A stretch of DNA of 64,000 bases from a virus. Below are positions 6,584 to 61,757 of the stretch, piece after piece. How positions within the stretch are numbered: the first letter of the stretch is position 1; every line of letters starts with the position of its first letter. Below the pieces are notes generated by a model. It was not told the DNA's origin. It searched no databases and saw nothing but the letters and a program-made list of their open reading frames with translations. The position numbers were made by a program, and so were the translations under genes. The DNA lies in the IMG/VR virus record IMGVR_UViG_3300009099_000001; one strand, given 5' to 3'.

Positions 6584-6609
6584 ACGCGTTCTTGATTAAA
6601 GAATGGATA

Positions 6610-6621
6610 TATACTTGTGCT
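6610..6621 (+). promoter_or_regulatory. Leaderless-type promoter for the portal gene (TATACT-N6-ATG)
   Basis: TATACT at 6610-6615, then 6 nt, then ATG 6622. Same geometry as at 19775 and 53997. Confidence 0.5.
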
Positions 6622-10307: not shown

Positions 10308-10931
10308 ATGCCCGCTCTCAAGAGAAATCCCCGCAAGTTCACGATGGCGACGCGGCGGTTGCGAGTCATGCAATTACGGACCGCCGGTTACACGCTGCAA
10401 CAGATTGCCGATCAGGTCGGGTGCGGCAAGGCGACGGTCAGCCGGGATCTGGATTTTTGTCTCCAGGATTTGGCGGATCAACAACAGGATCAGACGACGC
10501 AGTTGCGCACGCTGTCCAATTATCTGCTGGACATGCTGTTACAGAAATTTTTGCCGTTGGCCTTGCAAGGCGACGGCAAGGCGGCAGATCGGGTACTGCG
10601 GATCAACAAGCAGAAGCGCGATCTGTACAAACTGGATGTCCCCGAACCCGTCGCTGAGACCGCAGAGACAGAGCGGGATACGACCCAGGGGGCACAAGAC
10701 CTGTTGGGGGTGTTGCTGCAAGCCAATCCGCTTTGGCAGCGGGGCGTATTTGCGACGGCTGACGGCACGTTCGACGAGGTGGGCTATCGCTATTGGAACC
10801 AGCTTGCCCATGATGCGATCCCCGTGAAAATTCCCGGCGACGGCTTTATCGAGCACCATCGGCAATTGACCGCTACGTATGTGGCGGCGCACCCGGAAGA
10901 GTTCGAGCCGCATGATGGATCGCAGACTTGA
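10308..10931 (+). CDS. terS: Terminase small subunit (HTH)
   Basis: 207 aa. N-terminal HTH (LRTAGYTLQQIADQVGCGKATVSRDL) followed by a helical region. Lies directly upstream of and overlapping the large terminase. Confidence 0.6.
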   Translation: MPALKRNPRKFTMATRRLRVMQLRTAGYTLQQIADQVGCGKATVSRDLDFCLQDLADQQQDQTTQLRTLSNYLLDMLLQKFLPLALQGDGKAADRVLRINKQKRDLYKLDVPEPVAETAETERDTTQGAQDLLGVLLQANPLWQRGVFATADGTFDEVGYRYWNQLAHDAIPVKIPGDGFIEHHRQLTATYVAAHPEEFEPHDGSQT

Positions 10932-12327
10932 ACCGCAGCCGGGGCCGCAGACCTCGTTTCTGACCAGTCAGGCCCAGATGGTCGTATTCGGGGGACAAGC
11001 CGGCGGCGGCAAATCCTACGGCCTCATCCTCGCGGCGCTCAATCTCTGCCTGAAATACGCCGATTTCCGCTGCCTGATGTTGCGCAAGATGCTGCGTTCG
11101 GGCGTGATGAGCATTTGGGAAGAGATGGTAGGCATCTGTGCGGATTGGCCCGAGGTCAAGCAGGTCCACAGGTCGGCCTTCCGCATTTATTTCGCCAACG
11201 GCTCCAGCATCCAACTCGGGCATCTCCAGAAGCCCGACAGTTTCCGCAGTTGGCAAGGCGGTCAGTTCCAAGCCGTGCTGTTCGACGAGATCGCCGAGGG
11301 CTTCACGGAGCGCGAGGTGACGTTTCTCGCTTGGTCCCGGGCCCGGGGCATGAGCAGCGGGCCGGCCTTGGTACGGGCGACTTGCAATCCGTCTTCCACT
11401 TCGTTCATCCGCAAGTACGTTGGGCCGTGGGTAATCAAGGATCATCCGCGGTATCCGACCCCGCACAATCAATGGTTGTATTTCGTGCGGCAGCAACCGA
11501 GCGACGACATCGTGTTTTACGATCACCCGGACGAAGCCCCCGAGAACACGGCGCCGATGTCGCTTACGTTCATCGGCAGTACGCTCCGGGACAACCCCAA
11601 GTTGTTGGAGGCCAATCCGCACTACGAAGCCCAATTGCGCGCCTTGCCGCATGTGGACTACAGGCAACAGGGGATGGGGGATTGGGACATCGTAGAAGGC
11701 GGCGGGGCGGTACTCAAGCGCAAGTGGATCTCGGTATGGACGCCTGCCGATTTGCCGCAAGACGAACTGCCGGTGAAAGTGTATGCCTGGGATACGGCGG
11801 GCCGCGTATCCGACCTGAAGGCGCCTAAGGGTCAGGATCGGGGCGACTACACGGTGGGCATGCTGGCCCATTATTACCCCGACAGCGAGCGGTTCGTGGT
11901 CATGGAAGTGTGGCGTGTACGCATTCCGGTAGGGGAATTGCAACCCGCTATCGTGGCCCGGGCGCGGGACCTTGGCCCCGAGGTCCATATCGCCTTGGAG
12001 CAAGAGCCGGGGTCGCAGGCCGCGGCCATGCTCGCTCACATGGTGCGCAACGAATTGACGGAGTACCAGGTGACGATCTACAAGCCGCAAGTCGACAAAG
12101 TGAGCCGGGCCGCTCTGCTGTCGTCGTTGGCGAGCAATGGGCGGGTTGCCATCATGGACGGGCCGTATCGAGACACGGTGTTGGACGAATGGCATCTGTT
12201 TCCCGAAGGCCCCTACGACGATACGGTGGATGCGGCGACCTTGGCGCTCAACACCGCGCGGAGCGTTCAGCCAGGGCCTAAGACGCCTGAACTGTGGCGG
12301 CCTCGAGTACGCCAGCTGAGGATATAA
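10912..12327 (+). CDS. terL: Terminase large subunit
   Basis: 471 aa. Walker A FGGQAGGGKSY, Walker B AVLFDEIAE, C-terminal RNaseH-like nuclease acidic residues (VYAWDTAG, DDTVDAATLAL). Confidence 0.85.
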   Translation: MMDRRLEPQPGPQTSFLTSQAQMVVFGGQAGGGKSYGLILAALNLCLKYADFRCLMLRKMLRSGVMSIWEEMVGICADWPEVKQVHRSAFRIYFANGSSIQLGHLQKPDSFRSWQGGQFQAVLFDEIAEGFTEREVTFLAWSRARGMSSGPALVRATCNPSSTSFIRKYVGPWVIKDHPRYPTPHNQWLYFVRQQPSDDIVFYDHPDEAPENTAPMSLTFIGSTLRDNPKLLEANPHYEAQLRALPHVDYRQQGMGDWDIVEGGGAVLKRKWISVWTPADLPQDELPVKVYAWDTAGRVSDLKAPKGQDRGDYTVGMLAHYYPDSERFVVMEVWRVRIPVGELQPAIVARARDLGPEVHIALEQEPGSQAAAMLAHMVRNELTEYQVTIYKPQVDKVSRAALLSSLASNGRVAIMDGPYRDTVLDEWHLFPEGPYDDTVDAATLALNTARSVQPGPKTPELWRPRVRQLRI

Positions 12328-12339
12328 GGAGGCGCCGTT

Positions 12340-15300
12340 ATGTTACGCATGGCCAACCTCGGCACGATGCGAGGCGACATTGAGATCGATGTCAGCGGGG
12401 CGCAAGCGTCGTTGGCCCGCCTCCAGGAATCCGTCCAACAGCAATCCCAACAGATCGGGCAGAAGATGCAGCGGATAGGCGGGGCGCTGTCGCTGGGCGT
12501 TACTGCGCCGATTGCGGGCTTGGCCGCCGCTGCCGCCAAGGAGTTCGGGACCTTCGACGAAAACTTGCGCCTCATCCGCCAGATGACCTCGGCCACCGGC
12601 GACACGATGGACGCCATGCGCGAAAAGGCGTTGGAATTGGGCCGGGTCACTTCGTTCAGCGCGGGCGACGCTACGCAAGCCATGCTGGAATTGGTCAAGG
12701 GCGGCTTCGACACGGAAAAAGCCCTCGGTGCGATTTCCGGCACGCTGAACTTGGCGGCGGCGTCAGGTATCGATCTGGCTTCTTCGGCGGAAGTCGTGAC
12801 CGACGTGTTGGCGACCTTCAATCTGCCGGCTTCGGCTCTGGACAGTACGGTAGATGCGATGGCGGGCAGCGTCAACAACGCGGCGCAAGGGTTTGGGGAA
12901 TTGACCTACGCCATGCAGACAGCGGCGGCCCCGTTCTCCAATGCGGGATTTTCCGTGCAAGACTTGTCGGCCGCCTTGGCGGTCATGGCCAACCAAGGGC
13001 TGAAAGGACAACGGGCCGGGACTACTTTGGGGCGGGTCATTACCGAGCTGTCCAATCCCCGCAACGACGCAGCCGCAGGCATGATCCATGACCTCGGGAT
13101 CAACGTCTTCAACGCCGCCGGCGAATTCAATTCGTTTCGCGACATTCTGGGCGATATGGAACAGGGGCTCAAGGGCATGACGGCGGAACAGCGCACGCAG
13201 TCCTTGGCGACCATCTTCGGCGGGGATGCCATCAAAGCGGTCCTGCCGTTGCTCAATGCCGGAGTCGCCGGCTTCGACGAATTGAAGGCGGCGGTACAGG
13301 AAGAAGGGTCGGCAATGGGTCTGGCCGAGGCTTCGATGGCGTCGTTCAACGGCGCCCTGAAGTACATCCAAGGGACCATCGGCACAGTGCTGATTTCCGC
13401 CATCGAGCCGCTGGCGGAAACGATTGGTACAGTCATCCGCAAGGTCGCGGACTTCATTGCCAAGTTCGCTACGTTGCCGCCAGGCGCCCGGCAATGGATA
13501 GGGATCTTCGCGGGCATCGCGGCCGCCGCCGGCCCCTTTCTGCTCATCCTCGGCAAAGTCGTAGCAGTCGGCGGGGCCATCTTCGCGGCGCTGAATCCGG
13601 TGACTCTGGTAATCCTCGGTGTCTCGGCGGCCGTACTGCTCTTGAGCAACCGCTTCAAATGGTTCGCGGGGTTACGGCAGCGACTCGCCAAGTGGTTGGA
13701 AATTGGGCCTATCGAACGCATGCAGAAGGCGTTCGAGGGCTTCAGCGCCTACACGGAACGACTCAAGGGCATTGACGGGCTATGGGCGAAAATCCGGGAC
13801 ATTTGGCACGTCGGCCTAGGGGATGTAGAAAGCAACCTGTGGACGGGGATCGCACAGTTCCTGCATGGCGGCGACATGTCCAAAGTCCAGGACATGGCGG
13901 GCACATGGGACGAAATTCCCCAACTGTTCATAGAAAAATTCAAGGCGGCGTTCAAGAAAGGCGGACCGGTCGCCAAGGCGATCCGCAAGATCTGGCAGAA
14001 ATTCACGCGGGGCTTGACGCAATTCTTTTCGCGTCTAGGCTTCAAGACGTCCGAAGCCGATCCCGGCGGCGTGTGGCATCCGTGGGCGGATCGCCTGCAG
14101 AGAGGCTTTGCTGATCTGTTCGACCACAATTCCGAGTTGCGCCAGAAGTTGCGGGAACAATGGGAATTCTTTACGGAAGACGTCTTCCGGTGGTTCACGG
14201 AAAATCTGTTGCCGCCGGGGTCCCAGGTCGCTATTGGGGATTGGGGTGCGATGGGCAGTGCTTTGGTCGATCAGTTTCGGAGTCTCTTCCGGCGTGATGG
14301 TCCTGTGCATAGAGCAATCCGTGATGTGTGGTGGTCGTTCAGCAACAACATCTTGCTGTGGCTGTCGCCGGCAGGGGCCGACATTGGGCGCGGGCGGGCG
14401 CACTGGGAAGACGAGAGCATCTTCAAACTGTGGGCCGAAGCGATCCAAGACCGTTTTGCGTCCATGTTCGGGCGCAACGGCAATGTACGCCGTGCGATGC
14501 AGAGCACCTGGGAAGACTTCGAAGTCGGCGCATGGAATTGGATTGCACGGCGGGTATTGCCGGCGGATACGGAAATCGGTTCCGACACGGAAGGGACTTG
14601 GAGCGAGATCGGCGACGCCATCGGCGACCGCTGGGACGACGCTCTGGCTAAGGGAAGCGACCTCTGGGGCGACATCAAAGAAGAATGGGACGACTTCGCG
14701 GAGCGGGCTTGGAAGTGGATTGCGAAGCAAGAAATCGAACCCGACGCAGACCGGAAGGCCGACGGCATCTGGGACAAGGTGAGCGCGGCGCTAGGGAAGA
14801 CCTGGGAAAAGGTGTTCGGGACCGAGAATACGCTGTGGAACGACATCACGGCGGCGTGGCAGGCTTTTCGGACATCGATTTCCACGCTGGTGCAGACGGC
14901 CCTCAACATTGAATTCCCTGAAGGCGCCGGCGTGATCGAAACTTGGCGTTCCGTGACCGAGCAACTGCGCACGGGATGGGAAAACGCCGTCGGCCCCGGT
15001 TCGGCCTTGCGCACGGCGATGAGCAATGTGTGGCAGGGCCTCAAGACGTTCTTGGGCGGTTTGGTCAGGGGACGACTGCCTCTCAAGATTGACCGGAAAC
15101 CCAAGTGGTTTGAAGAATTGGCGGAACGCGAGAAAGGCACCCCGTGGGAGTATATGTCCCAAGCGGAGTTCCGCAAGGCCCAAGCCCGTCACACGAACGA
15201 GTTGGCGCGGTGGCAAGAGCAAGTGGATCAATTTACCGATCCTGCGTCTCATTTGGGCGGAATGAAGCCAGAGGCGCATGCTGCCGTCTTAGAGGAGTGG

Positions 15301-18300
15301 GAGGCTCTGCACAGAGCAAGGCCACATTCAGTGTGGGAGGGCATGGAGAGGCCGGCGTGGATGGATTTGATGGACCAACAGGCTGAGGCCGACAGTCAGG
15401 CCGCCATCGATCAATTCTTCGCGCCGTGGCGCAATCTGTTCGACGGCTTGCGGCAGAAATGGGAAGAATTCCTAGGGCCGACATCGGAACTGCGCCAGAA
15501 GTTGAGCGACGTCTGGACGAAGTTCAAGACGTTCGTACAGACCCTCGTACAGACCGCTATCGACATGGCGGCGGGCGATCCTGAGAACCGCACATGGGAC
15601 AACTTCAAGGCCGCGTTGTCCGGCGACTTCGCCGCCTTGCTGGATGCCGGCGGCGAACTCTTCCTGGGCATCCAAAACACGTGGAACGCCTTTCGGGCGC
15701 GGGTATGGACTTGGCTGACGGGATCGCCGCCGCTGGGTACGCCCGAGACACTCATCCCGGATCTGGAAGACCCCGACTATCTGACGAAACTCTTGGAGTT
15801 CCAGCCGCCGGCCCGCATTCCGATTTGGGACGATTTGCAAGAAATCATCCAAGAGGGCTGGCAGTTGCTCTTGGCCGCAGGGTCGGCGCTGTGGACGAAC
15901 ATCAAGGCCACATGGACGGATTTCGGGTCTCGGGTCTGGGATTGGCTCAAGGGCGCGGCGATTGCCGTGACCGGCGGCGGGGACGACGACGTGCCCATGT
16001 GGAAGAAGATCCGCAACTTCATCGCCGGCTGGTTCGCCGCGATCTTCGTGTCGGGGTCTGCGCTATGGAAGGGGTTGCGAGCGATCTGGACAGTGTTCGG
16101 GACGATGGCTTGGAACTGGTTCAAGGGCCTGGTGATTCCGGCGGGAACCGACCCTGGCACCATTACGCTCTGGGATGCCGTAGTCGCCAAGATCGGCGCC
16201 TGGCTCGGCAAGGCGTGGGACGACGCGGGCACGTTCTGGACAGACTTGCAGACCCATTGGGATGCGTTTACGAAGGACGTCTGGGATTGGGTGAAGGAAC
16301 GCCGGATCAAGGCCGGCGCCGATCCGGAAAACATCACCATGTGGACTGCCGTTACCGGGACGATTGCCGGCTGGTGGGATGCGGCGTTGGCCACGGGGCA
16401 ATCGCTATGGACCCGGCTAGGGACCCATTGGGACAGCTTCAGCACGCGGGTCTGGGCTTGGGTCGTCGCCCGGCGTATCCAGGCTGGCGAGGCTGGCGGC
16501 AGCATGTGGAACCGCATTACGGCCAAGGTTTCGGGATGGTGGAACGCAGCGTTGCAAAAGGGCACGTCCCTATGGGACTCGCTGGGCGACGCGTGGGACA
16601 CGTTCGAGGCGCAGATTTGGACTTGGGCGATGGGGTTGGTCGTTGCAGCGGGCGAGACGCCGGCGGAAGGGGCGGGCACGTGGGCCTTGGTGCTACAAGC
16701 CTTAGGGTTGCAGTTTGCCAAAGCGGTAGGCCCAGACTCGCAATTCCGCAAGGACATTGACGCGGCCTGGGACAAGACGAACACTGCGATCAGCAATCGC
16801 ATCCGCACTACGTTCTTGCAGAACGTGGAAGAGCTGGATGCAGCGGGCGCAGCCCCGGAACTCAAGGCGCCTACCGACGAAATGATCCAAGACTGGGCGG
16901 CGGACAGTTTGTTTCCGGCCGCGGCGGAAGCCGGATTGTCGGCCATGACAGCGAATGTAGCCGCGCATATTGCCGGCGAACACGGGATCCTGGGACAAAT
17001 GTATACCGCATTCACGTTTGGACTGGGACACACCTTAGGCAAAATCATCGCCCAAATCAACCTGGCGACGGAAGTCATCAAGTATGCGATCTTGGGGATG
17101 TTCGTGCCGGGGTTTCGGGATCTGAATACCCAAATCAACGCGATCCTGAAAGCCGGCGATCAGGGGTTGACGACGGGGCTGCTCGCTGGCATCGAGACCG
17201 AGCAACAGCGGTATCGGGAAATGTTGGCCCCCGTTACGGAACCTCTCGGTATCGAACTGTTCGAGCCGGTCATGACGTGGGGCGAATTCGGACAAGAAGT
17301 GATGCCCCTATGGAGGCCGCCGCCCCCGCGTCCGGCGCTCCCCGAAGACACTTCTTTTGAGGACACCGTAAATCGACAAATCGCCCAAGGCGAAGAGGCG
17401 GCCAAGAAGGGCAACCGCGGCTGGCAGCAGCAACTTACGGAAAATCTGGGGAACGCTTTGCAAAACTTCCAGCCTGCCGCATTGACCGGCGGCCCTGTGT
17501 TTTCCGTGTTGCCGTCCCTGCTAATGTCGTCGCTCCAGGCCGGGCTCACGGCGGCCTGGGACGGCTTCGCTGCCTGGTTCCAAGAGACCCTTGCGACCCC
17601 CTTCGCCGGCTTGTGGACCGACATGTTCCAGGTCGACATCTTGGGCACAGTCGGGACGTTCTTCACCGATTTGGGCACGGACATTACGGAAGGCTTCACG
17701 GGCCTCAAAGACAATTGGGACGCTACCGTAAAGGGCTTCAGGGCGAAGGTCGAGAGTCTTTGGTCCGGCCTACGCCTGTATGCCCTGATCCAATGGAACC
17801 TGCTCGTTACGAGTTGGAAGGTTTGGTGGACAGCGCGCAAGAACGGGTTTGACGAGGTAGTCAAGGGGTTCAAGGAAAAGGTCGAAACCTTCTGGACTGC
17901 GCTCAAGGATTTCATCGTAGAGACTTGGGAGGCGGCTTGGGAGGCGGTGAAGGCGGCTATCGTAGGCGACAAGGCCAAAGGGGTTCTGGGACTGTGGGAT
18001 CGTCTAGGCGAAGGGCTGACGCTGGTCATGGACAAAGTCACGGCCCAAATCGACCGGATCACGAATTCCATCGAAGGGGCGATTGCGGCGTTCAACCGTC
18101 TCAAGGAACTCAATCCCTTGGGCTATTTCAAGCGCAAGGCGCGGGAAGCCGAGGAAACGCAGGTGCGCATCCAAGCCGCCGGGTTCGCGGGCATGATGCC
18201 GTTTGCCGAAGAAGAAGCGGAAGAAGTGAAGAAAGGCGGCAACTGGTTCACGCGCTTGCTGGGCTTCCAGCATGGCACGAAACATCATCCGGGCGGGCTG

Positions 18301-18537
18301 TCTTGGGTCGGCGAGGCGGGCCCGGAACTAATTGCGCCGCCGCGGGGCAGTCAGGTCTTTAGTCACGACGACTCGATGCGGATGATGCGCGAACAGAACG
18401 CACTGCTCCGGGAACAGACCCGGTTGCTGCAAGACCTCGAGCAAAGCCAAGTCAACGTGACTGCGCACTACGACGCCCAGCCGGACGAAGACCTGCTGAG
18501 TCAAGTGCAATACGCCCGGGCCTTGTTGCGGGCATAA
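12340..18537 (+). CDS. Tape measure protein (2065 aa)
   Basis: N-terminal TMP core (ELGRVTSFSAGDATQAMLELVKGGF...AMANQGLKGQRAGTTLGRVITEL) and transmembrane segments. About 25 Trp-rich ~45-aa repeats (LW..I...W..F...VW.WI). C-terminal GGLSWVGEAGPELI block. Strong RBS AAGGAGG. Confidence 0.8.
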   Translation: MLRMANLGTMRGDIEIDVSGAQASLARLQESVQQQSQQIGQKMQRIGGALSLGVTAPIAGLAAAAAKEFGTFDENLRLIRQMTSATGDTMDAMREKALELGRVTSFSAGDATQAMLELVKGGFDTEKALGAISGTLNLAAASGIDLASSAEVVTDVLATFNLPASALDSTVDAMAGSVNNAAQGFGELTYAMQTAAAPFSNAGFSVQDLSAALAVMANQGLKGQRAGTTLGRVITELSNPRNDAAAGMIHDLGINVFNAAGEFNSFRDILGDMEQGLKGMTAEQRTQSLATIFGGDAIKAVLPLLNAGVAGFDELKAAVQEEGSAMGLAEASMASFNGALKYIQGTIGTVLISAIEPLAETIGTVIRKVADFIAKFATLPPGARQWIGIFAGIAAAAGPFLLILGKVVAVGGAIFAALNPVTLVILGVSAAVLLLSNRFKWFAGLRQRLAKWLEIGPIERMQKAFEGFSAYTERLKGIDGLWAKIRDIWHVGLGDVESNLWTGIAQFLHGGDMSKVQDMAGTWDEIPQLFIEKFKAAFKKGGPVAKAIRKIWQKFTRGLTQFFSRLGFKTSEADPGGVWHPWADRLQRGFADLFDHNSELRQKLREQWEFFTEDVFRWFTENLLPPGSQVAIGDWGAMGSALVDQFRSLFRRDGPVHRAIRDVWWSFSNNILLWLSPAGADIGRGRAHWEDESIFKLWAEAIQDRFASMFGRNGNVRRAMQSTWEDFEVGAWNWIARRVLPADTEIGSDTEGTWSEIGDAIGDRWDDALAKGSDLWGDIKEEWDDFAERAWKWIAKQEIEPDADRKADGIWDKVSAALGKTWEKVFGTENTLWNDITAAWQAFRTSISTLVQTALNIEFPEGAGVIETWRSVTEQLRTGWENAVGPGSALRTAMSNVWQGLKTFLGGLVRGRLPLKIDRKPKWFEELAEREKGTPWEYMSQAEFRKAQARHTNELARWQEQVDQFTDPASHLGGMKPEAHAAVLEEWEALHRARPHSVWEGMERPAWMDLMDQQAEADSQAAIDQFFAPWRNLFDGLRQKWEEFLGPTSELRQKLSDVWTKFKTFVQTLVQTAIDMAAGDPENRTWDNFKAALSGDFAALLDAGGELFLGIQNTWNAFRARVWTWLTGSPPLGTPETLIPDLEDPDYLTKLLEFQPPARIPIWDDLQEIIQEGWQLLLAAGSALWTNIKATWTDFGSRVWDWLKGAAIAVTGGGDDDVPMWKKIRNFIAGWFAAIFVSGSALWKGLRAIWTVFGTMAWNWFKGLVIPAGTDPGTITLWDAVVAKIGAWLGKAWDDAGTFWTDLQTHWDAFTKDVWDWVKERRIKAGADPENITMWTAVTGTIAGWWDAALATGQSLWTRLGTHWDSFSTRVWAWVVARRIQAGEAGGSMWNRITAKVSGWWNAALQKGTSLWDSLGDAWDTFEAQIWTWAMGLVVAAGETPAEGAGTWALVLQALGLQFAKAVGPDSQFRKDIDAAWDKTNTAISNRIRTTFLQNVEELDAAGAAPELKAPTDEMIQDWAADSLFPAAAEAGLSAMTANVAAHIAGEHGILGQMYTAFTFGLGHTLGKIIAQINLATEVIKYAILGMFVPGFRDLNTQINAILKAGDQGLTTGLLAGIETEQQRYREMLAPVTEPLGIELFEPVMTWGEFGQEVMPLWRPPPPRPALPEDTSFEDTVNRQIAQGEEAAKKGNRGWQQQLTENLGNALQNFQPAALTGGPVFSVLPSLLMSSLQAGLTAAWDGFAAWFQETLATPFAGLWTDMFQVDILGTVGTFFTDLGTDITEGFTGLKDNWDATVKGFRAKVESLWSGLRLYALIQWNLLVTSWKVWWTARKNGFDEVVKGFKEKVETFWTALKDFIVETWEAAWEAVKAAIVGDKAKGVLGLWDRLGEGLTLVMDKVTAQIDRITNSIEGAIAAFNRLKELNPLGYFKRKAREAEETQVRIQAAGFAGMMPFAEEEAEEVKKGGNWFTRLLGFQHGTKHHPGGLSWVGEAGPELIAPPRGSQVFSHDDSMRMMREQNALLREQTRLLQDLEQSQVNVTAHYDAQPDEDLLSQVQYARALLRA

Positions 18538-25271: not shown

Positions 25272-26330
25272 ATGGCTTACGACGATCCGCGACCCTTCGG
25301 CTTACAGTCGGTGTGGGTGGCGCGGACCTGGAATGCCGTCGGACACAAAGTGCGCGGCTTCGGATATACGTGGGACCCGAATCCAGTCGCTACACCCGCT
25401 TTGGTCGGCGCAGTAGACGTGACCGGGGGTGTCGCGACTGCCACGTTCGGCGGCAATCTCATATCAGGTCCTATTACCGTGACGGCTACGGGCACAGGTA
25501 CCGCCATTACCGAAGTGGTGTCGGCACGATCTTCTTTTGCATACCAACTCACACCGACCCGGCGCACGGTCGTAACTTTGAGCGATACGGATTGGACCGA
25601 CGCTCGCCCTTACAGCTGCGCCAACGCCCGCCAAGCCCAGAGCATTACGCTACGGGCGGCCAGCGTCACTAGTCTGGACGTCTACTTGAACGCCGCGGAC
25701 GACGAATTGGATGCGGCGCATCAAGTCGAATCCGCCAACGTGTTGTTCAGCGCCGGTACGGACATCGACAGCGATCCCGCCGTGCTGTATATCTTCAACG
25801 GTTTCCAGACCGCCAATCCGACGCCTACGAACGGCGACGCCATTACATTGGTGATCGACGGCGAGGCGCGGCATGTGGCGCGCATGGCGGCGGCCAACAG
25901 CATGACGTTCAGTCATAGTTACAAGACGGGCGAGATGCAAGGCAACGATCAGATCGTGGCCGTGGGCACCCGCTTGGCGAGTCTGGAAGGGGACCTGGAA
26001 TCCGGCGGCATCGACTTCGATGCGTACGAAATCATGCTGGGCCAGGACATCGCCCTGAACACGACCACCGGCACCACCGAAGTCACGGGCAGCAACGTCA
26101 ATCCGTACTTCAAGATCAGCGGCGTAGTGACCGACCCCAATGCGCAGGGGTCCACGGAAGTGGTCATCTACCGAGCCAAGCTGAATTCGCTGGAAGGCAG
26201 CTTCAGCGACGCCAAGTTCCTGGTCACTTCCGGGTCCCTGATGGCGATCAAGGAAAGCGACGCTAGCGACAATATCTACGACCTGTATGCTTACGAGACC
26301 CAGGTCGCCCGGGATCTGTCTACGTTCTGA
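25272..26330 (+). CDS. Putative major tail (tube) protein, long paralogue with N-terminal extension
   Basis: 352 aa with RBS AGGAGG. The C-terminal half is paralogous to 24734-25258 (GNDQIVAVGT..SLEGDLESGGIDFDAYEIMLGQ...YFKISG...IYRAKLN). Confidence 0.45.
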   Translation: MAYDDPRPFGLQSVWVARTWNAVGHKVRGFGYTWDPNPVATPALVGAVDVTGGVATATFGGNLISGPITVTATGTGTAITEVVSARSSFAYQLTPTRRTVVTLSDTDWTDARPYSCANARQAQSITLRAASVTSLDVYLNAADDELDAAHQVESANVLFSAGTDIDSDPAVLYIFNGFQTANPTPTNGDAITLVIDGEARHVARMAAANSMTFSHSYKTGEMQGNDQIVAVGTRLASLEGDLESGGIDFDAYEIMLGQDIALNTTTGTTEVTGSNVNPYFKISGVVTDPNAQGSTEVVIYRAKLNSLEGSFSDAKFLVTSGSLMAIKESDASDNIYDLYAYETQVARDLSTF

Positions 26331-41623: not shown

Positions 41624-41646
41624 AAAAAGCCCCGCCGGAGCGGGGC
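41624..41646 (-). terminator. Rho-independent terminator for 41671-41937
   Basis: GCCCCGC-TCCG-GCGGGGC followed by TTTTTG on the minus strand. Confidence 0.65.
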
Positions 41647-41670
41647 TTGGTGCCCGACGGGGTGCGGTGC

Positions 41671-42100: not shown

Positions 42101-42122
42101 TTGCGGAATGAGAACGCGCTAG

Positions 42123-42197
42123 GGTCTCGGCGGGAGTCGAACCCGCCCAATTGGATGAAGCCATGCCTATCTGTCGCCCAGACATGTCCATTCGTTA
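42123..42197 (-). other. tRNA-like remnant (T-arm and 3' acceptor only)
   Basis: GCGGG-TTCGACT-CCCGC is identical to the T-arm of the tRNA at 44306-44377. I could not fold an acceptor 5' strand, D-arm or anticodon arm. Confidence 0.3.
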
Positions 42198-42269
42198 CAG
42201 CCCCGCCGGGAATTGAACCCGGTACCTCGCCGTGGACAGTAGCGGATGCAACCGTTACACTTCGGGGCT
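42198..42269 (-). tRNA. tRNA, anticodon GUC (Asp-type), non-canonical C37
   Basis: Hand-folded cloverleaf. Acceptor AGCCCCG/CGGGGCT, D-stem GTGT/GCAT with loop AACGGTT. Anticodon stem CGCTA/CGGCG (A-C at the loop end), loop CTGTCCA. T-arm CCGGG-TTCAATT-CCCGG. No encoded CCA. Confidence 0.6.
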
Positions 42270-42837: not shown

Positions 42838-43093
42838 CCTCTACTCCTTCGGCATAGCGCACGAACGTCGTCTGCCACAGTTTGCGCTCGTCGTTGAGCC
42901 AGGCCGTCAATTCGCAGTACAGCAGTTGTGGGTCGGACTGGTGCTTTTGGACGAGCGTATTCCAGCAGTCCCACGTATGCCGGCGGACATCGACGCCCGG
43001 CAATGTGCGAAATGTGATCTGCTCTCGATAATGCGCCGTCGCTCCCTCCTGCAGAGCGAAGACATGCACGACGACGGCATCGGGCTTAGGCAT
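42830..43093 (-). CDS. Hypothetical protein
   Basis: 87 aa from ATG 43093 (MPKPDAVVVHVF...), overlapping the upstream stop by 8 nt. Confidence 0.5.
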   Translation of the reverse strand: MPKPDAVVVHVFALQEGATAHYREQITFRTLPGVDVRRHTWDCWNTLVQKHQSDPQLLYCELTAWLNDERKLWQTTFVRYAEGVEDG

Positions 43094-43361
43094 GGGCTTG
43101 CTGCGGCTTACGGCGGCGGACATTCACCCGTTGTCTGGGGGGGGCAAGTATCGACAAGCCCCGCAAATGCTTGGTGTGTGGATGCTTACCCCCGCTCTGT
43201 TTCGCCCGACGTTTCTTGCGATTATGCGCAGTCTGCTCTGCTTGCAGGGCGGTACGGGCGGCTTTGGCCTCTAGCCAACGGCTGGCTTGCGGCAAGGGAG
43301 TGCGGGTACGGGAACGTCTAGGCATTGCCACGGTCCGGGAACCCGTCTTCTTCCTGCCCAT
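43086..43361 (-). CDS. Arg/Lys-rich small protein (paralogue family)
   Basis: 91 aa from ATG 43361 behind GGAGGCAGAG. MGRKKTGSRTVAMPRRSRT...HNRKKRRAKQSGGKH. Starts 30 nt after the suppressor-like tRNA. Confidence 0.55.
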   Translation of the reverse strand: MGRKKTGSRTVAMPRRSRTRTPLPQASRWLEAKAARTALQAEQTAHNRKKRRAKQSGGKHPHTKHLRGLSILAPPRQRVNVRRRKPQQAHA

Positions 43362-43390
43362 CTCTGCCTCCGGTCTGTGGTTTCCAGTCA

Positions 43391-43462
43391 TAGCCCCGAC
43401 GGGAATCGAACCCGCTAGAACCGCGTCTAAAGCACGGCGTGTATCCATTGCACCTCGGGGCC
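43391..43462 (-). tRNA. Suppressor-type tRNA, anticodon UUA (reads UAA ochre)
   Basis: Clean hand-folded cloverleaf. Acceptor GGCCCCG/CGGGGCT (G1-U72), D-stem GTG/CAC with loop AATGGAT. Anticodon stem CCGTG/CGCGG with canonical 7-nt loop C-T-TTA-G-A (U33, purine 37). Variable region TTCTA. T-arm GCGGG-TTCGATT-CCCGT. Confidence 0.65.
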
Positions 43463-43476
43463 TATAGTTGTTCGGG

Positions 43477-43689
43477 TCAACCCCAAGGACCGCCCCATTT
43501 GCTACCGCTGCGCCGTTTTTTGCCCGCCCGTTTATTGCGACGCGCCGTTGTTTTGCGGCGGCTTCGATTCCAGGCTTCCGCCCTGAGCCATTCCTTGCGG
43601 CGCAACTCCTTGGCGGCCGCCCGCGCCTCCTGTTCCGTGCGATGTTCGGTTGCATCTTGGCGCGTGTGCGTTCTGCGCTTCCTGCCCAT
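43477..43689 (-). CDS. Arg/Lys-rich small protein (paralogue family)
   Basis: 70 aa with RBS AGGAGGAAGAG. MGRKRRTHTRQ...AAAKELRRKEWLRAEAWNRSRRKTTARRNKRAGKKRR. Confidence 0.55.
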   Translation of the reverse strand: MGRKRRTHTRQDATEHRTEQEARAAAKELRRKEWLRAEAWNRSRRKTTARRNKRAGKKRRSGSKWGGPWG

Positions 43690-43716
43690 CTCTTCCTCCT
43701 GTATATGATGTCTGGG

Positions 43717-43945
43717 CTATTTCACTTTGCCCCGCGTCCCGTGACGGCGTATCCGCCGCCCGCCCCGATTGTTTTTGTTTCGCCGCGTCGCTCCCCTCCT
43801 GCGGGCGAGTTTGTGTTTGCGCTTGTTTCCCGCGGTGTCAGGCTGCTTGTTCCCGCCGTCGTTGTGCTTTGGCCGCGGCCGCGGCGTGCTTGGCCGGATG
43901 CGCGGTCGGGTCCACGGCATCCGGGTCGGGCACATCATGCGTCAT
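43717..43945 (-). pseudogene. Frameshifted member of the Arg/Lys-rich family
   Basis: ATG 43945 behind AGGAGGAAAGC opens a 35-codon frame (MTHDVPDPDAVDPTAHPAKHAAAAAKAQRRREQAA). The family C-terminus (ARRRGATRRNKNNRGGRRIRR) continues in another frame (track ORF 43717-43938). Confidence 0.4.
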
Positions 43946-43974
43946 GCTTTCCTCCTATGCTGGATTTCGTCAGG

Positions 43975-44041
43975 GGCCTATTACGGGGATCGAACCCGCC
44001 GCCGTCCCAGGAACAGAGGGACTGCGCCGCCCAGGATAGGC
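43975..44041 (-). tRNA. tRNA-like gene, possible anticodon GUU (Asn-type), truncated D-arm
   Basis: Acceptor GCCTATC/AATAGGC (one C-A mismatch). Perfect anticodon stem GTCCC/GGGAC with loop T-CTGTTCC-T. T-arm GCGGG-TTCGATC-CCCGT. Only ~12 nt lie where the D-arm should be, so it may be a pseudogene. Confidence 0.3.
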
Positions 44042-44305
44042 CGCGTCGTCAGGGCACGATTTCAAGATGCTGGATTGAGGTCGTCATATGTGTGCTCCTG
44101 TAGTCCTGTGTTTCAATCCCCCGCCGCCGGGAATCGCTCCGGTCGTCGCCCCATATGACAACTCACGGACCCACGGCGGGGGAACCCTCTTCGTACCTTG
44201 CAGTACTGTCGCGAAACGGGGCGCTACCGTCTCCTATGCCCAGCGGAAATCAATAGGCACGGCCCTCCAGATGCCAGGATAAAACCAGGGCGACTTGGGC
44301 GCCCA

Positions 44306-44377
44306 CAGTCCCGGCGGGAGTCGAACCCGCTACCCTGCGCGATACAGACGCCCATGCAGCCGTTACACTTCGGGACT
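44306..44377 (-). tRNA. tRNA, anticodon GUA (Tyr-type, short variable arm), non-canonical U37
   Basis: Acceptor AGTCCCG/CGGGACT, D-arm GTGT-AACGGCT-GCAT. Anticodon stem GGCGT/GCGCA, loop CTGTATC. T-arm GCGGG-TTCGACT-CCCGC. The 5' end abuts the stop codon of 44378-44818. Confidence 0.55.
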
Positions 44378-54008: not shown

Positions 54009-55322
54009 ATGTCGCCTCAATCTCCGTTCCGTCTCTTCAATCCCGTCGGCGCCGCCGGCGGCCAGAAACTCGTCTCCCAGGGCTGGGGGACGCATCCCGA
54101 GTGGTACAAGACTTGGGGCATCAAGGGGCACAACGGCATCGATTTGGCCGTGCCCGTCGGTACGCCCGTGCGCTGTGCCGGGGCCACCGAGGGCAAGGTG
54201 GTCGTCTCCAAGCAGCATACGGACCATCTCAAGGAAAACCGCGCCCCGTTGGGCACGCACATCATCATCGAGCATGAGCCGTGCGAGGATTTTCCCGGCG
54301 GCTATCAGACGCTCTACGCCCATCTCAATCTGCAGGACGTCTTCGCCGGCAATCGGGTCAGTCCAGGACAGCACATCGGAACCAGCGGCAACACGGGAAA
54401 CAGCACGGGGCCACATCTGCATTTCGGGCTACGTCCCTTGCCCTACGATCACGACGACGGCTGGCTCGGCTTCGTAGACCCGCAGTCTTGGATTTCGTGG
54501 GACCATGACCCGTTCCCCGCCTACGTCTCGCGCTACAACCCCTATCGCAAAGTGCAAGGGCTGCCGGAACTCGAGCCGGAAGAACCCGTCACGAAATACG
54601 GGCCCGGCGAATACGGGAAACTCAGCGCCTCCCAAGCAGAACGCGATCGCACCCAAGTCGCTCTCCCCGTGCAGACGGAAACGCCGAACCCCGAACCCGA
54701 ACCGGCGCCCGCCTCGAAACTCAAGCAGATCACGGACCGTCTCGAAGCCCAAGACGACGACGGCGAGGGCACGGTCATCGTCAAGCGTGTGGTCGGGGGC
54801 ATCGGCAAAGCCGGGGCCCGCGGGTCCGTGTGGCTGGCTGTGATGCACGCCGTAATCCAGATCTGGACCGGCGGGGAAACCGGTTTGTGGAAAGCCGTGC
54901 AGACGGTATTGGCCGTGACGGGGACCGCCGCGACCTTGGCGGCAACGCCCGTTGCCACAGTGCCGGCACCAGCGCCTATCCCTGTACCGCCCGCAATCCA
55001 AATCGTAGAGCCCACCGCTACCCCCATCCCGACGCCTATCGTGGTCCAGACCCTACCGACGCCCATCGTCCCTACCCCTGTCACGCACAACGCCGAATGC
55101 CGGCATACAGCCCTCGGCAACTTTTGGATACGCCCCGAACCGCGTACCGACAGCTTCTATCCGGATCGTCGCGCCACGCAGCCCGGCGAAACCTATTGCC
55201 TCGTCCGCCGCATTGACCGCGACGACGGCCCGTGGGTGCAGCTGGAAGGGTTGGGCTGGGTACGCCTCACCGATGGGGCGCAACGCAGTTTCGATTTGCC
55301 CGCCGCCTTGCCGGCGGGATAA
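54009..55322 (+). CDS. M23 (LytM-type) peptidoglycan endopeptidase with membrane segment and C-terminal extra domain
   Basis: 437 aa. GHNGIDLAVPVGTPV (HxxxD) and GNTGNSTGPHLHF (HxH). Hydrophobic stretch GSVWLAVMHAVIQIW...VLAVTGTAATLAA. Pro-rich linker and ~80-aa C-terminal domain. Confidence 0.85.
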   Translation: MSPQSPFRLFNPVGAAGGQKLVSQGWGTHPEWYKTWGIKGHNGIDLAVPVGTPVRCAGATEGKVVVSKQHTDHLKENRAPLGTHIIIEHEPCEDFPGGYQTLYAHLNLQDVFAGNRVSPGQHIGTSGNTGNSTGPHLHFGLRPLPYDHDDGWLGFVDPQSWISWDHDPFPAYVSRYNPYRKVQGLPELEPEEPVTKYGPGEYGKLSASQAERDRTQVALPVQTETPNPEPEPAPASKLKQITDRLEAQDDDGEGTVIVKRVVGGIGKAGARGSVWLAVMHAVIQIWTGGETGLWKAVQTVLAVTGTAATLAATPVATVPAPAPIPVPPAIQIVEPTATPIPTPIVVQTLPTPIVPTPVTHNAECRHTALGNFWIRPEPRTDSFYPDRRATQPGETYCLVRRIDRDDGPWVQLEGLGWVRLTDGAQRSFDLPAALPAG

Positions 55323-55337: not shown

Positions 55338-56444
55338 TCACCAACCCGTAGACACGAAGTTGTCCGGTTTCGTCGCGGGATCGTCTACGCGGGACATTTC
55401 GTCGAGCAAAATCTCGCCGTCGTATAAGCGGATCCGCACGGCCACGTATCCCGCCTGCATTTCGACCATCTGCGCACAGCGGCGAAACTCGTTCCAGGCA
55501 CGCGTTTCGTCGTCGGTGCGCAACCACGGAGAGACCCGGCCCGGCGGCGTCGCTTGAAAGTCTGCCTCAACTACGATCCGAAAGCGGTCCTTGCGCGGCC
55601 CTAGGCGCTCATCCGGCCTCCCCAGCAACGCGGCGACAGCATGCTTCACCGTCTCCCGCGTCAGGCGCCGCGGCGTGAAATACGCTTCGTGCTCCCGACG
55701 TCCCCAGTTCGAATTGCGGAACAGAAACGTACCCGCCGGGATCGGGCGGGGATACGCGACGTTGTCCACGATCTCGGCCTCCCTGAACTCGGCCACCGCC
55801 GAGACGGGGCAAATACCCACGATGCGGTCCAAGATCCCCGGCGGCTTATCCTGCGCGCGCTTGACGGCTACGCTGTCGACTGCCGCATAGAATCCCTGGT
55901 AGTCCAGCAGGCTTGCGCCGACAAAGCCCGGAATCGTGACGTCCATATCCGCGTAGAAGTCCTGGCCGCCGGGCAACGGCGGCAAATCCAAGATCGTAGT
56001 CGCAATGCGCCGCCAGATGTCGTGGGGCACATCGGGCACGTCGAGGCGAGACTGCGCCATCCCGTCGGCGCGGCAGAGAGCCGCATGCAGGCTCGGCGTA
56101 GCGCGAAAGCGCCCGGCGACCAAATTCGTGCGCGTCGCCATGCGCGGATACCCCGCATGGACCAGCGGCGACATGCCCCACGGTGCACGCGCCTCGAAGC
56201 ACCACGCAAAGATCCACCGCATCAGCAGCTGTACAATCTCTTTGGCCAGGGCCGGGGCATCGAGATCGCCGGGGTCTGACGCTTGGTCGAATACGGCTTG
56301 CCCGTACACCTCCACGGCGTGCCGTACCGCGGCCAACAAGCGTTGTTCATGCGCGTGGTCTTGTGCAGACTCTGCGTCCGTCGCCGCCCGGAGCGCGTCC
56401 CAATCGGCGGGCGTCCATTGGCTCAGATCGTGGCTAGACGTCAT
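55338..56444 (-). CDS. Hypothetical protein translationally coupled to the integrase; distant resemblance to the helical N-terminal region of Type IIG/ISP/BREX-type methyltransferases
   Basis: 368 aa from ATG 56444 (ATGA overlap with the integrase stop). LLMRWIFAWCFEARAPWG and HEAYFTPRRLTRETV blocks. No SAM-binding or NPPY motif follows. Confidence 0.35.
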   Translation of the reverse strand: MTSSHDLSQWTPADWDALRAATDAESAQDHAHEQRLLAAVRHAVEVYGQAVFDQASDPGDLDAPALAKEIVQLLMRWIFAWCFEARAPWGMSPLVHAGYPRMATRTNLVAGRFRATPSLHAALCRADGMAQSRLDVPDVPHDIWRRIATTILDLPPLPGGQDFYADMDVTIPGFVGASLLDYQGFYAAVDSVAVKRAQDKPPGILDRIVGICPVSAVAEFREAEIVDNVAYPRPIPAGTFLFRNSNWGRREHEAYFTPRRLTRETVKHAVAALLGRPDERLGPRKDRFRIVVEADFQATPPGRVSPWLRTDDETRAWNEFRRCAQMVEMQAGYVAVRIRLYDGEILLDEMSRVDDPATKPDNFVSTGW

Positions 56445-57360
56445 CGGGGGACCGTGCCCCATCGCCCGGCCTCCATTTCTTGCAAGAGCGGGTCTTTCGA
56501 CCAGGCGGCTTGGACCACGCGCTGCAGGCGTTCCCGTCGCCGCGGGCACCACGGCATATAGTATCGCTCCGTAGTCTTGATGCTGTGATGGCCGAGCAGC
56601 ATGGAGACGTCTTCCATCGACGTACCTGCTTGCAACAACTCCACGGCGAAAGTATCCCGAAATCGATGACTATGCCCGTCGGAAATGCCGGCCTTGCGAA
56701 ATATCGTCTTCAGCCGATCTTGCCATAAGCCCGAAATGCTGCGGCGCATGCCCTTGCCCGACCAAAAATAATAGCGGGCCGAGGTCGGCGGAAACGCCGC
56801 CAAGGCCGTCATTACTTGCGGGGCCACGGGCATCATGACTCCAACCCCCGTCTTGGTGCGCCGGACCGTCAACGTCCCGTCCACGATGGCGCCGTGCACG
56901 GGAAGCGTACACGCATCCCCTACGGCCAAGCCCGTGGTGCGCATCAGCAGGCACAAGGCATAGTCACGGGGCGAAGTCTGCCGGGCCACGTCCAAGATGC
57001 GCTCGATCTGGGGGGGGGAAACGCCCGCGTGGGGCGTTGTTGGAATTTGGGCGAGCGCAATCCCGCCGCCGGGTCGCGAGGCAGTTTGCCCATCTCGACG
57101 CAGAAGCGAAAGAACCGCTTGACCTGCCCTAGCATGATGCCTTGGGTACTCGCTGCTTGATGCAATTGATTGCGCCAGGCGCGTACCATCTCGACCTCGC
57201 AATCGGCCAAGCGGGTAATCCCTTGGGCGGCGGCATACTGGCGGAACGGCTCCAGCGTACAGCGATACCGCGTCACCGTGTCCGCGCACAGATTACGGCC
57301 CCGCAGATCCTCGTAGAAAATCTCTATCGCAGCCTCGAGCGTAACGTCAGTCGAACTCAT
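56441..57360 (-). pseudogene. int: Tyrosine integrase interrupted by a frameshift at a C9 homopolymer
   Basis: N-terminal SAM-like domain in frame A (57360 down to the run). Catalytic domain in frame B (HSHRFRDTFAVELL, LLGHHSIKTTERYY) down to 56441. The frames meet at G9 (+ strand 57010-57018). One extra C, or a -1 slip, gives ...RAFPPPQIERILDVARQ... Confidence 0.8.
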
Positions 57361-60022: not shown

Positions 60023-60558
60023 ATCGCCAACTCCGCCTGGGTATGGGTCAAGACGAACCCCGCCCGATGTTCCCCCTTGGTTCGCCGCGGGTGCTCTTGC
60101 AGCACGCCCCGCCGCTGGAGGGCACGTCCCGCTTGCCGGACGGTCATGCGGGACGTACCGAGCTGCATGCCTATCTCCGTATACGACTGCCACACTACGC
60201 GGTTCTGCGTGAGCAGCCAGTCGTACAGCAGATTTTCGCTGCGGGTCCAGAAGGCCGCACGGAGGGCAGACGCACGGCCCCGCGCCGTCCAATAGGGCAA
60301 GCCGTACAGATGGCCCCGGGCATGCTTGGGTCTACGCGTTACCCGCAGGCAGCGCGCAGCGCTCAAATAGGCGACTTGCGGCGCCATCATTTTGGGATGC
60401 GACGAGACGGCAGCGGCGATCTGTCGATACGTCTGGGGCACCTCTACGCCCGGCTCGCCCTCGCACAACATCTCAATGTGCCGGAAGACCAACCAGGCGA
60501 CTTGACCGAGACTGACGCGACTGCCGTGCGGGGAGGGCGGCAACGAGTCCGCCATCAT
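60019..60558 (-). CDS. Winged-helix protein (paralogue family flanking dnaN), copy 2
   Basis: 179 aa. ATGATG overlaps the dnaN stop. ...AAFWTRSENLLYDWLL...WQSYTEIGMQLGTSRMTVRQAGRALQRRGV. Confidence 0.6.
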   Translation of the reverse strand: MMADSLPPSPHGSRVSLGQVAWLVFRHIEMLCEGEPGVEVPQTYRQIAAAVSSHPKMMAPQVAYLSAARCLRVTRRPKHARGHLYGLPYWTARGRASALRAAFWTRSENLLYDWLLTQNRVVWQSYTEIGMQLGTSRMTVRQAGRALQRRGVLQEHPRRTKGEHRAGFVLTHTQAELAI

Positions 60559-61757
60559 CCTTTCCCGGCACGCGGTGGGGACATGGGCATGATTACATGC
60601 AGAAAGTCGAACTCTGCCTGCGGCACGGGACGCAAGACGCCCGGCCTGCCGGCTGCCGCCAATCCGATTTCCAATTCCGCCGCCCCCACATGTTGGAGGA
60701 AATCGATGACGTACTGGCCGTTGAACGCAATCTCCAGTGCAGGGCCGTCGACCCGTGCCGGGATCTGGTTCGTATTTGCGCCCCGTTGCGCACTTTCCGC
60801 CGAGACTGCAATTTCGCCGTCCGGATGGAGGGTCTGTCGGGGGGCACACGTCAACGAGACCGTACCGTGGGACTCCCGCGAAAACAAGAACGCGGCCCGC
60901 ACGCTTTGGTGCAAATCGTCCGTCTGCGCGTGGACCCGCGTCTGCGTCTCCGCATCCTCCGGGATAATCCGCCGATAGTCGGGGAACGTGCCGTCGATCA
61001 ACTGGCAGATCAGCAACACCCGGTCGAACGTCCCGCCGTCATGCCCCCGACCCCCCAAGGCAAAGTGGATCTGGTTGCCGTTGGTCGTGGTCGCGAGGCG
61101 GATCGGCCGACTGCGATCGGCGTCGCCCCAGAGCCGAGCCAATTCCGTCAAGGCGGTCGCTGGCACCAAGGCCCGCACTTCCGGTGTGCTCGCCGTCGTC
61201 GGCGCCGTGCAGACGCTGAGCCGGAAGCCGTCCGTGGCCGCCATCGTCAAGGTGTCGTTCGCAAAACGGAAATCCACCCCCGCCAGATTGGGACGCTCTG
61301 GCGTCTTGGCCGCGGCGAAGACGGTACGCTCGATCATGCCGCGCAAGCCCTGCAGATCCAATTGCACGGTCTCCCCGTCGCCAGCGATCTCCGTCGGGAT
61401 TTCCGGGAATTCCGCGGCGGCCACCGTATGAAATGCCGCCTGATAACTACCGCACTGTACTTCCAGTTGCCGGGTTTCGTCCTGGTATTGCAGTACGATT
61501 TTGCGGTCCGCAGGCAGCAGGGCGACAAAATCCGTCATCAGACGCGCCGGGACGGTCACGGCGCCCGGGGCCAGCACATCGCAGTCCACCCAGACGTTGA
61601 GGCTAATGTCCAGATTGGTGCTGACCAGCCGGATACCGTCCTCCGACGCCTCGAGCAGGATATTCTCCAAGACGGGCAATGTGGGCCGGCTGGCCACGAT
61701 CCTACCTACATGCCCTAAGACCTTCTGTAGGTACTGTGCCAAAATCCGAATGTGCAT
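60555..61757 (-). CDS. dnaN: DNA polymerase III beta sliding clamp
   Basis: 400 aa from ATG 61757 behind AGGAGTGGATCT. LQKVLGHVGRIVASRPTLPVLENILLEASEDGIRLVSTNLDISL and three-domain length. Confidence 0.8.
   Translation of the reverse strand: MHIRILAQYLQKVLGHVGRIVASRPTLPVLENILLEASEDGIRLVSTNLDISLNVWVDCDVLAPGAVTVPARLMTDFVALLPADRKIVLQYQDETRQLEVQCGSYQAAFHTVAAAEFPEIPTEIAGDGETVQLDLQGLRGMIERTVFAAAKTPERPNLAGVDFRFANDTLTMAATDGFRLSVCTAPTTASTPEVRALVPATALTELARLWGDADRSRPIRLATTTNGNQIHFALGGRGHDGGTFDRVLLICQLIDGTFPDYRRIIPEDAETQTRVHAQTDDLHQSVRAAFLFSRESHGTVSLTCAPRQTLHPDGEIAVSAESAQRGANTNQIPARVDGPALEIAFNGQYVIDFLQHVGAAELEIGLAAAGRPGVLRPVPQAEFDFLHVIMPMSPPRAGKG

Follow-up and report, generated by a model that had tools for sequence, protein, structure and literature searches.

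Introduction

Classical ochre suppressors of Escherichia coli derive from the transfer RNAs (tRNAs) for Tyr, Lys and Gln by single anticodon changes to UUA, and were reportedly reviewed by Eggertsson and Soll in 1988. We describe here a phage-encoded gene with the same anticodon, a 72-nt class-I tRNA gene of the ochre-suppressor type located at 43391..43462 on the minus strand of a 64,000-nt stretch of viral DNA (IMG/VR record IMGVR_UViG_3300009099_000001; this whole stretch is called the window).

Predicted stop-reading tRNAs are known from a few phages that use the standard genetic code. The Xanthomonas jumbo phage XacN1 encodes two CUA suppressor tRNAs (PMC5852040) and the Klebsiella phage phiKp24 encodes a tRNA-Sup-TTA (PMC8386662), in both cases with no identifiable target, and TAA suppressors have been tallied across phage genomes (bioRxiv 10.1101/2021.08.26.457843). 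A second group is formed by the recoded phages (Lak, crAss-like and others), which read TAG as Gln or TGA as Trp and carry suppressor tRNAs (bioRxiv 10.1101/2021.08.26.457843; PMC9523058). Phages and other mobile elements also possess dense tRNA arrays, and phage tRNAs have been proposed to evade tRNA-targeting host enzymes (PMC5966550, PMC6409571, PMC10264068, PMC11555353). Reassignment of TAA has not been established for any phage (bioRxiv 10.1101/2022.06.29.495998); among the stop codons, UAA alone has no established reassignment in bacteria or in bacterial viruses. Since tRNAs that naturally read UAA are rare, each well-formed case is a candidate for testing phage ochre suppression.

Identification and fold of the UUA tRNA gene

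The original prediction, made from the letters of the window, had placed a tRNA with anticodon UUA at 43391-43462 and had named ARAGORN as a check. At default settings ARAGORN returns only one tRNA for the 64-kb window; it lies on the minus strand at 43391..43462 and is called tRNA-Stop with anticodon tta. The Rfam tRNA family RF00005, whose gathering score is 29 bits, matches the same interval and strand over the full length of the gene (model positions 1-71) with 44.8 bits; in a scan of the entire window with all 4227 families the E-value is 2.6e-6. These two independent detectors concur on coordinates, strand and anticodon and give no shifted loop, which bears out the predicted tRNA and its anticodon.

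Read on the minus strand, the gene consists of the segments GGCCCCG AG GUGC AAUGGAU ACAC G CCGUG CUUUAGA CGCGG UUCUA GCGGG UUCGAUU CCCGU CGGGGCU A. The 7-bp acceptor stem (GGCCCCG/CGGGGCU) contains a G1.U72 wobble pair, and the anticodon stem (CCGUG/CGCGG) is closed by four Watson-Crick pairs and one U.G pair. The loop C-U-UUA-G-A has the canonical seven nucleotides with U33 and a purine at position 37, and its anticodon is complementary to UAA. The T stem has five pairs, the T loop UUCGAUU fits the consensus UUCRANY, and G18G19 is present. The acceptor, anticodon stem, anticodon loop and T loop had all been described correctly before, once they are read on the minus strand; the earlier description was silent on the strand itself and on the G1.U72 wobble, as well as on four further features reported here. 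The near-universal U8 is replaced by A8 (together with A14), the D stem is not fully paired owing to a C13xA22 mismatch, the discriminator is A73, and no CCA end is encoded, the bases directly 3' of the gene being UGACUGG. The cloverleaf has a free energy of -27.5 kcal/mol and the minimum-free-energy structure one of -29.2 kcal/mol; this gap of 1.7 kcal/mol is equal to or better than that of comparable tRNAs. Minimum-free-energy folding by itself is not informative with tRNAs so rich in GC (z about -1). We conclude that 43391..43462 is a genuine, structurally maintained tRNA gene with a stop-reading anticodon.

Two other readings of the element were considered and dropped. On the plus strand, 43391-43462 would have C33 in its loop, and there is no T loop on that strand. 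An attP site was rejected because the element is a full-length tRNA lying about 13 kb from the integrase gene (56441..57289).

Paralogues and remnants in the tRNA cluster

With relaxed thresholds ARAGORN adds three minus-strand elements, called as Asp(gtc), Tyr(gta) and a poor Gly(tcc)-like tRNA. The first, at 42198..42269, has the Asp-like anticodon GUC and G73; it scores 37.4 bits in Rfam and 66.2 bits with R1, a covariance model of 26 external tRNAs introduced below. Its loop, CUGUCCA, has a non-canonical C37, its anticodon stem an A31xC39 mismatch, and its sequence is 69% identical to that of the UUA tRNA (repeat family D1). The second, at 44306..44377, is a tRNA-like gene with anticodon GUA and G73, 'Tyr'-like by anticodon but of class I, with a non-canonical U37 in its loop CUGUAUC and a G27xA43 mismatch. 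It scores 69.8 bits with R1 and is absent from the Rfam output, the GUC gene being the only one of ARAGORN's relaxed additions to pass the Rfam threshold.

The UUA, GUC and GUA genes are each 72 nt long with pairwise identities of 69-76%, and since they have in common A8, a D stem of the form GUGY/RCAY and the acceptor sequence, we regard them as paralogues. Across the three, 95% of the stem cells are paired, compared with 36-56% in slid-register controls, and compensatory double changes are found in six pairs, four of which belong to the five pairs of the anticodon stem. This indicates that all three genes diverged under the constraint of the cloverleaf, although three sequences provide modest evidence. 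The claim that the UUA gene forms the best cloverleaf of the cluster is correct, as it is the only paralogue combining a fully paired anticodon stem with a canonical U33/purine-37 loop. Single substitutions connect the anticodons GUC, GUA and UUA in series, and the sister tRNAs thus suggest a possible one-step mutational route to a stop anticodon.

Two further elements of the cluster are degenerate. The Gly(tcc)-like element at 43973..44042 (minus strand) retains the acceptor and T arm, and a 5-bp stem closes a 9-nt loop; it reaches 15.4 bits with R1, and in Rfam it has only a sub-threshold match to tRNA-Sec (17.5 bits). The other remnant, found by alignment at 42118..42192 (minus strand; repeat family D2), has a perfect T arm (42130-42148) and the 3' acceptor strand but no convincing 5' half, and R1 matches its T arm alone with 16.9 bits; it could be a 3' fragment of a host tRNA of the attP kind. 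Conservation among the cluster elements is highest in the acceptor and T arms. The cluster that had been claimed from inspection is accordingly real, with two further paralogues and two remnants beside the UUA gene, all on the minus strand. Two hairpins were also observed within it: a long GC-rich one at 44110-44183 (minus strand; about -41 kcal/mol, z = -2.1) between the GUA element and the Gly-like remnant, and a terminator-like one at 44288-44304 directly after the GUA element.

The tRNA and tRNA-like elements alternate with four small minus-strand open reading frames (ORFs) at 42291-42578, 43086-43361, 43477-43689 and 43838-43945. Each of these has a strong ribosome-binding site and three of the four are very basic (29-36% Lys plus Arg). 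Two of the basic ORFs flank the UUA tRNA: one of 70 aa (43477..43689; 36% Lys plus Arg, ribosome-binding site AGGAGG) ends 14 nt upstream of it, and another of 91 aa (43086..43361; ribosome-binding site GGAGG, TAA stop) starts 29 nt downstream. The start region of the former is duplicated at 43350-43384 (repeat family D4), so that two of the ORFs have 83%-identical start regions (43350-43384 and 43678-43712). The interleaved ORFs are weakly similar among themselves and have no Pfam or PHROG match. These repeats make it probable that the region expanded as a module of 'ORF plus tRNA' was duplicated in tandem.

The UUA tRNA lies near the distal end of a leftward (minus-strand) transcription unit. 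The unit that holds the cluster ends at a strong intrinsic-terminator-like hairpin with a T run (41627..41648, minus strand), which is also matched by several small-RNA terminator models in the Rfam scan. No sigma-70-like promoter was found before the UUA tRNA.

tRNAs with an A8-type body elsewhere

For the comparison with other tRNAs we use the term A8-type for a grouping defined in this analysis and not curated, comprising clustered tRNAs with A8, R9, a D stem GUGY/RCAY and an otherwise normal cloverleaf. A looser pattern (A8, GUGY ... RCAY and a T loop) retrieved 61 metagenome loci and four IMG/VR viral contigs, and a check of acceptor and T-stem pairing left 32 distinct external good cloverleaves. 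Their sense anticodons correspond to Lys, Trp, Arg, Gly, His, Asp, Ala, Val, Ile and Pro, and they sit within dense arrays of 8-34 tRNAs. Most of them have U14, an apparent U8:A14 swap, whereas the three tRNAs of the window have A14. These external tRNAs with ordinary sense anticodons score 44-52 bits in Rfam, so the 44.8 bits of the UUA tRNA are normal for its type. Because A8 is common to the paralogues and to external array tRNAs with sense anticodons, we consider it a family trait and not a sign of decay. In the papers searched we found no description of the A8/U14, GUGY/RCAY body.

The covariance model R1, built from 26 of the external A8-type tRNAs, gives 64-70 bits to the three tRNAs of the window (UUA 64.0 bits, E about 3e-15) and 15-17 bits to the two remnants; these scores are partly circular, since the search pattern that gathered the external set had itself been derived from the tRNAs of the window. 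A purine occupies position 37 in 25 of the 26 external members. In comparable arrays, not one of 478 tRNAs has an anticodon for a stop codon, which implies that such a tRNA is normally not kept. A narrow pattern of anticodon loop and T loop matched 57 IMG/VR loci, mostly tRNA-Leu(UAG); three were Sup(UUA) tRNAs, and the bodies of these are unrelated to that of the present gene. The body of the UUA tRNA is thus ordinary for phage arrays and its anticodon exceptional.

A pattern for the anticodon arm of the tRNA had no match in IMG/VR, and one for the 5' half shared by the paralogues had none in IMG/VR or the metagenome collection. In the genome collection the latter pattern matched a prophage-like stretch of an Eremiobacterota metagenome-assembled genome (CAWCFE010000002.1), in which two odd A8/GUGC tRNA-like elements lie on the minus strand at 1683-1752 and 2314-2385 of the extracted locus, between phage-type genes (ParB-like, MT-A70 methylase). 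One of these elements has G33 ('Arg cct', 43 bits); in the other, the loop is 6 nt and the T stem 6 bp long. A comparison of the ORFs of the retrieved loci with those of the window revealed nothing in common except one marginal match, and without common proteins neither the array contigs nor the Eremiobacterota locus can be regarded as related phages.

The window uses the standard genetic code

Gene calling by codon usage gave 74 genes in the window, 40 of which end in TGA, 21 in TAA and 13 in TAG. TAA terminates 28% of the genes, including those for the large terminase and for a 2065-aa tail protein, and is not avoided. Among the 29 plus-strand genes the stops are TAA 12, TGA 12 and TAG 5; the ten TAA stops cited in the original prediction are all real, but TAA ties with TGA on this strand and is not the most frequent stop. 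With the standard code the 74 genes have a coding density of 0.897 and a summed coding score of 4882. When the window was re-predicted with TAA as a sense codon, as had been recommended, the gene number fell to 60, the density to 0.834 and the score to 4113, and each merge across a TAA scored below the separate genes. No gene in the window is split by, or needs, an in-frame TAA. The window therefore uses the standard code without any genetic-code change, in agreement with the earlier statement that there is no simple whole-genome recoding.

Of the 21 TAA stops, 3 are followed in frame by a downstream gene; for TAG the figure is 6 of 13 and for TGA about 3 of 40, which looks like chance adjacency. 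The extensions past TAA have mostly negative coding scores, and all the downstream genes in frame after TAA have their own ribosome-binding site and ATG. The suggestion that the tRNA drives regulated read-through extensions is not supported. The most conspicuous case is the junction of the terminase gene and the gene for the 2065-aa protein, which starts at 12340, in frame and four codons past the terminase TAA with no stop between. The next gene has the ribosome-binding site TAAGGAGG, which includes this TAA (12325-12327); the junction is an instance of classic translational coupling. No release factor, synthetase or tRNA-processing gene was found among the ~35 window proteins scanned with Pfam or PHROGs, a scan that left many small structural ORFs outside.

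Amino-acid identity of the UUA tRNA

Global alignment with the 478 array tRNAs gave at best 55 identical positions of 72, with many isotypes. In its 3' half the UUA tRNA is similar to the tRNA-Glu found in Streptomyces phages and in one array. Among array tRNAs that combine G1.U72 with A73, Glu is the commonest isotype (8 of 27), and Lys, Leu, Arg, Val and Ile also occur. From these sequence features, U34, U35, A73 and G1.U72 would fit best with a Glu-, Lys- or Gln-type origin, and the G1.U72/A73 statistic mildly favours Glu. U34-U35 with A73 would suit the lysine enzyme too, and tRNAs with UUA or CUA anticodons are frequently mischarged by the glutamine enzyme.

The phage and its gene map

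The window has a G+C content of 61%. Its plus strand from 139 to ~41616 carries the virion genes, among them those for a portal-like protein (6592..8193), the large terminase (10879..12327; TAA stop 12325-12327), the 2065-aa PhageMin_Tail protein (12340..18537; TAA stop), a major-tail-like protein (25272..26330) and further large proteins. A tape-measure-like gene straight after the terminase gene is an unusual gene order. The last ORF of this block (40777-41616, plus strand) contains a SLGAGVQSS motif.

Between 41.6 and 64 kb the genes on the minus strand are small and of early type, and several encode helix-turn-helix proteins. The protein family scan identified a tyrosine integrase (56441..57289) and a DnaN sliding clamp (60555..61757) on this strand, and an M23 peptidase (54009..55322) encoded on the plus strand within the same region. 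A few kb from the tRNA cluster lies a minus-strand gene (46532-47296) for a PAPS-reductase-like PP-loop protein (PF01507, with a weak TilS-type PP-loop match). Directly beside the cluster are three adjacent minus-strand ORFs of about 147 aa each (44378-44818, 44815-45258 and 45264-45710) that match pieces of PF18135, the C-terminal specificity domain of Type ISP restriction enzymes; two correspond to the N-terminal end of the domain and one to its C-terminal end, and they look like fragments or stand-alone domain proteins.

The integrase indicates that the phage is temperate. The large terminase has a 100% identical counterpart encoded on a JGI contig of 96,351 bp, whereas its next best homologue among 5.8 billion proteins is 36% identical, and on this basis the phage belongs to an unsampled lineage. 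No related viral loci were recovered through the large terminase or a 272-aa neighbour, and when the cluster and the tRNA were compared by blastn with 50,697 phage records, the result was nothing or short matches of 20-36 nt, mostly to the T arm and 3' half. The closest homologues of DnaN are cellular, with 52% identity and located on contigs of 3.5-4.4 Mb, and the next tier carries Chloroflexi names. Our guess is an Eremiobacterota or Chloroflexota-like host; the two elements in the Eremiobacterota genome are a possible clue to the host phylum.

Proposed origin and function of the UUA tRNA

We tentatively favour the view that the UUA gene yields an intact tRNA, matured by host enzymes, that causes weak and untargeted read-through of UAA and less of UAG if it is charged. 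The gene would have been born by duplication and divergence within the small tRNA cluster of the phage. Lacking a promoter of its own and placed between small ORFs of the unit that ends at the terminator 41627-41648, it probably shares a transcript with these ORFs. The tRNA would then be excised by RNase P and 3' processing enzymes of the host; the host would also add the CCA end, which the gene lacks. Provided that a synthetase of the host charges it, the tRNA would read UAA and, through wobble, also UAG, though less strongly. The outcome would be low-level stop read-through, with no change of the code and no programmed extension of particular proteins.

Several observations weigh against this proposal. 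Expression, charging and read-through are all steps that we infer, and the high R1 score is partly circular as explained above. The neighbours of the UUA tRNA are partly degenerate, so the cluster may be decaying; the UUA tRNA itself has the unusual features A8, G1.U72 and C13xA22, which might hinder its folding or its recognition. Stop anticodons are missing from the 478 tRNAs of comparable arrays, and the collections contain no relatives in which conservation of the anticodon could be judged. There is also no convincing excess of back-up stops, with a further stop within three codons after 3 of 21 TAA and 2 of 40 TGA terminators. Without such enrichment, and since efficient suppression would produce a fusion of the terminase with the 2065-aa protein, any activity must be weak or absent.

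A somewhat less probable explanation is that the UUA tRNA decodes nothing, being either the relic of a decaying cluster with a drifted anticodon or a tRNA-shaped RNA with another role. Such an RNA could provide an RNase P/Z processing signal that separates the messages of the small ORFs, or act as a decoy or replacement substrate for tRNA-cleaving host enzymes, and its 'stop' anticodon would be incidental. Phage tRNAs and tRNA arrays have been proposed as anti-defence devices (PMC10264068, PMC11555353, PMC12803027), which speaks for this explanation. So do the state of the cluster, in which two of five elements are clear remnants and the paralogues have C37 or U37 together with stem mismatches, the better conservation of acceptor and T arms, and the regular alternation of tRNA(-like) elements with small basic ORFs in duplicated modules. 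The prophage-like Eremiobacterota region, where two elements with the same body have G33 or a 6-nt loop, and the lack of stop anticodons in array tRNAs point the same way. What it accommodates poorly is the UUA copy itself, with its perfect anticodon stem and canonical loop, and the compensatory changes in four of the five anticodon-stem pairs, which imply that the lower half of the molecule is constrained too. A replacement tRNA, moreover, requires a sense anticodon, and no anticodon nuclease is known to act on a UUA anticodon. Should the tRNA prove inactive, it would show that 'suppressors' in phage tRNA clusters are over-predicted when they are called from the anticodon alone.

Programmed read-through or local recoding, in which specific proteins are extended or fused or genes with in-frame TAA lie in the ~32 kb outside the window, is unlikely. 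The tRNA is intact, TAA makes up 41% of the stops of the plus-strand virion genes, the frame of the terminase continues past its TAA into the 2065-aa tail gene without an intervening stop, and ~32 kb of the source contig do fall outside the window. However, in-frame neighbours are not commoner after TAA than after TAG, the downstream genes have their own ribosome-binding site and ATG (with the terminase stop inside TAAGGAGG), and merging across TAA lowers the coding score each time. TAA is also not depleted as a terminator, unlike the reassigned codon of recoded phages (bioRxiv 10.1101/2021.08.26.457843), and predicted phage ochre reassignments failed alignment checks (bioRxiv 10.1101/2022.06.29.495998). 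We are equally doubtful that selection keeps the UUA tRNA as a working ochre suppressor, stage-specific or acting from the prophage, for the controlled production of extended or fused proteins (e.g., a terminase plus 2065-aa tail protein fusion) or for TAA-containing genes in the unseen third of the genome; if true, this would be the first case of a bacterial virus with a functional natural system for decoding UAA. Least probable is a role in host takeover, in which the suppressor damages protein termination of the host and so favours the phage. This idea was raised for phiKp24 (PMC8386662) and appeared in the original prediction as sabotage of host termination, and all that speaks for it here is the existence of the anticodon. 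UAA suppression would act on the phage's own TAA-ended genes, 28% of the total, and would therefore not be host-selective; a toxic tRNA would burden the lysogen of a temperate phage; and no compensating phage release factor is present among the ~35 scanned window proteins. Neither host sabotage nor programmed read-through or recoding outside the window has positive support.

Comparison with known systems

The locus resembles XacN1 and phiKp24 in having a predicted stop-reading tRNA among other phage tRNAs, a standard code and in-silico read-through that reveals no targets, and it shares the UUA anticodon with phiKp24. It differs from both in that the phage is temperate, has 61% G+C and belongs to an unsampled lineage, and in that the cluster is tiny, with three paralogues and two remnants instead of a full array. 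Its A8-type body is unrelated in sequence to the other viral UUA tRNAs. As in the recoded phages, a phage tRNA has an anticodon that matches a stop codon, but the hallmarks of recoding are missing: the recoded phages have many in-frame recoded stops (mainly in late genes), avoid the codon as a terminator, show a low coding density under the standard code and sometimes encode a release factor or synthetase.

With the ochre suppressors of E. coli the UUA tRNA has in common the anticodon and its distance of one substitution from a sense anticodon, and the same behaviour is expected of it, namely weak suppression that is better for UAA than for UAG. The E. coli suppressors are laboratory-selected host alleles with known charging, whereas the present gene is a natural, diverged phage paralogue. 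With the dense tRNA arrays it shares the A8, GUGY/RCAY body; the paralogues of the window show, in addition, non-canonical positions in the anticodon loop. Those arrays contain sense anticodons only, while the present cluster is small and partly degenerate, and a UUA tRNA is unable to replace any cleaved host tRNA, in contrast to the role proposed for the arrays. The A8-type body may be a distinct substrate for host enzymes and could interest builders of orthogonal suppressor tRNAs. Suppressor tRNAs without a target have already been reported in standard-code phages; what the present locus adds to them is a one-step series of paralogues, an A8 body and an unsampled lineage.

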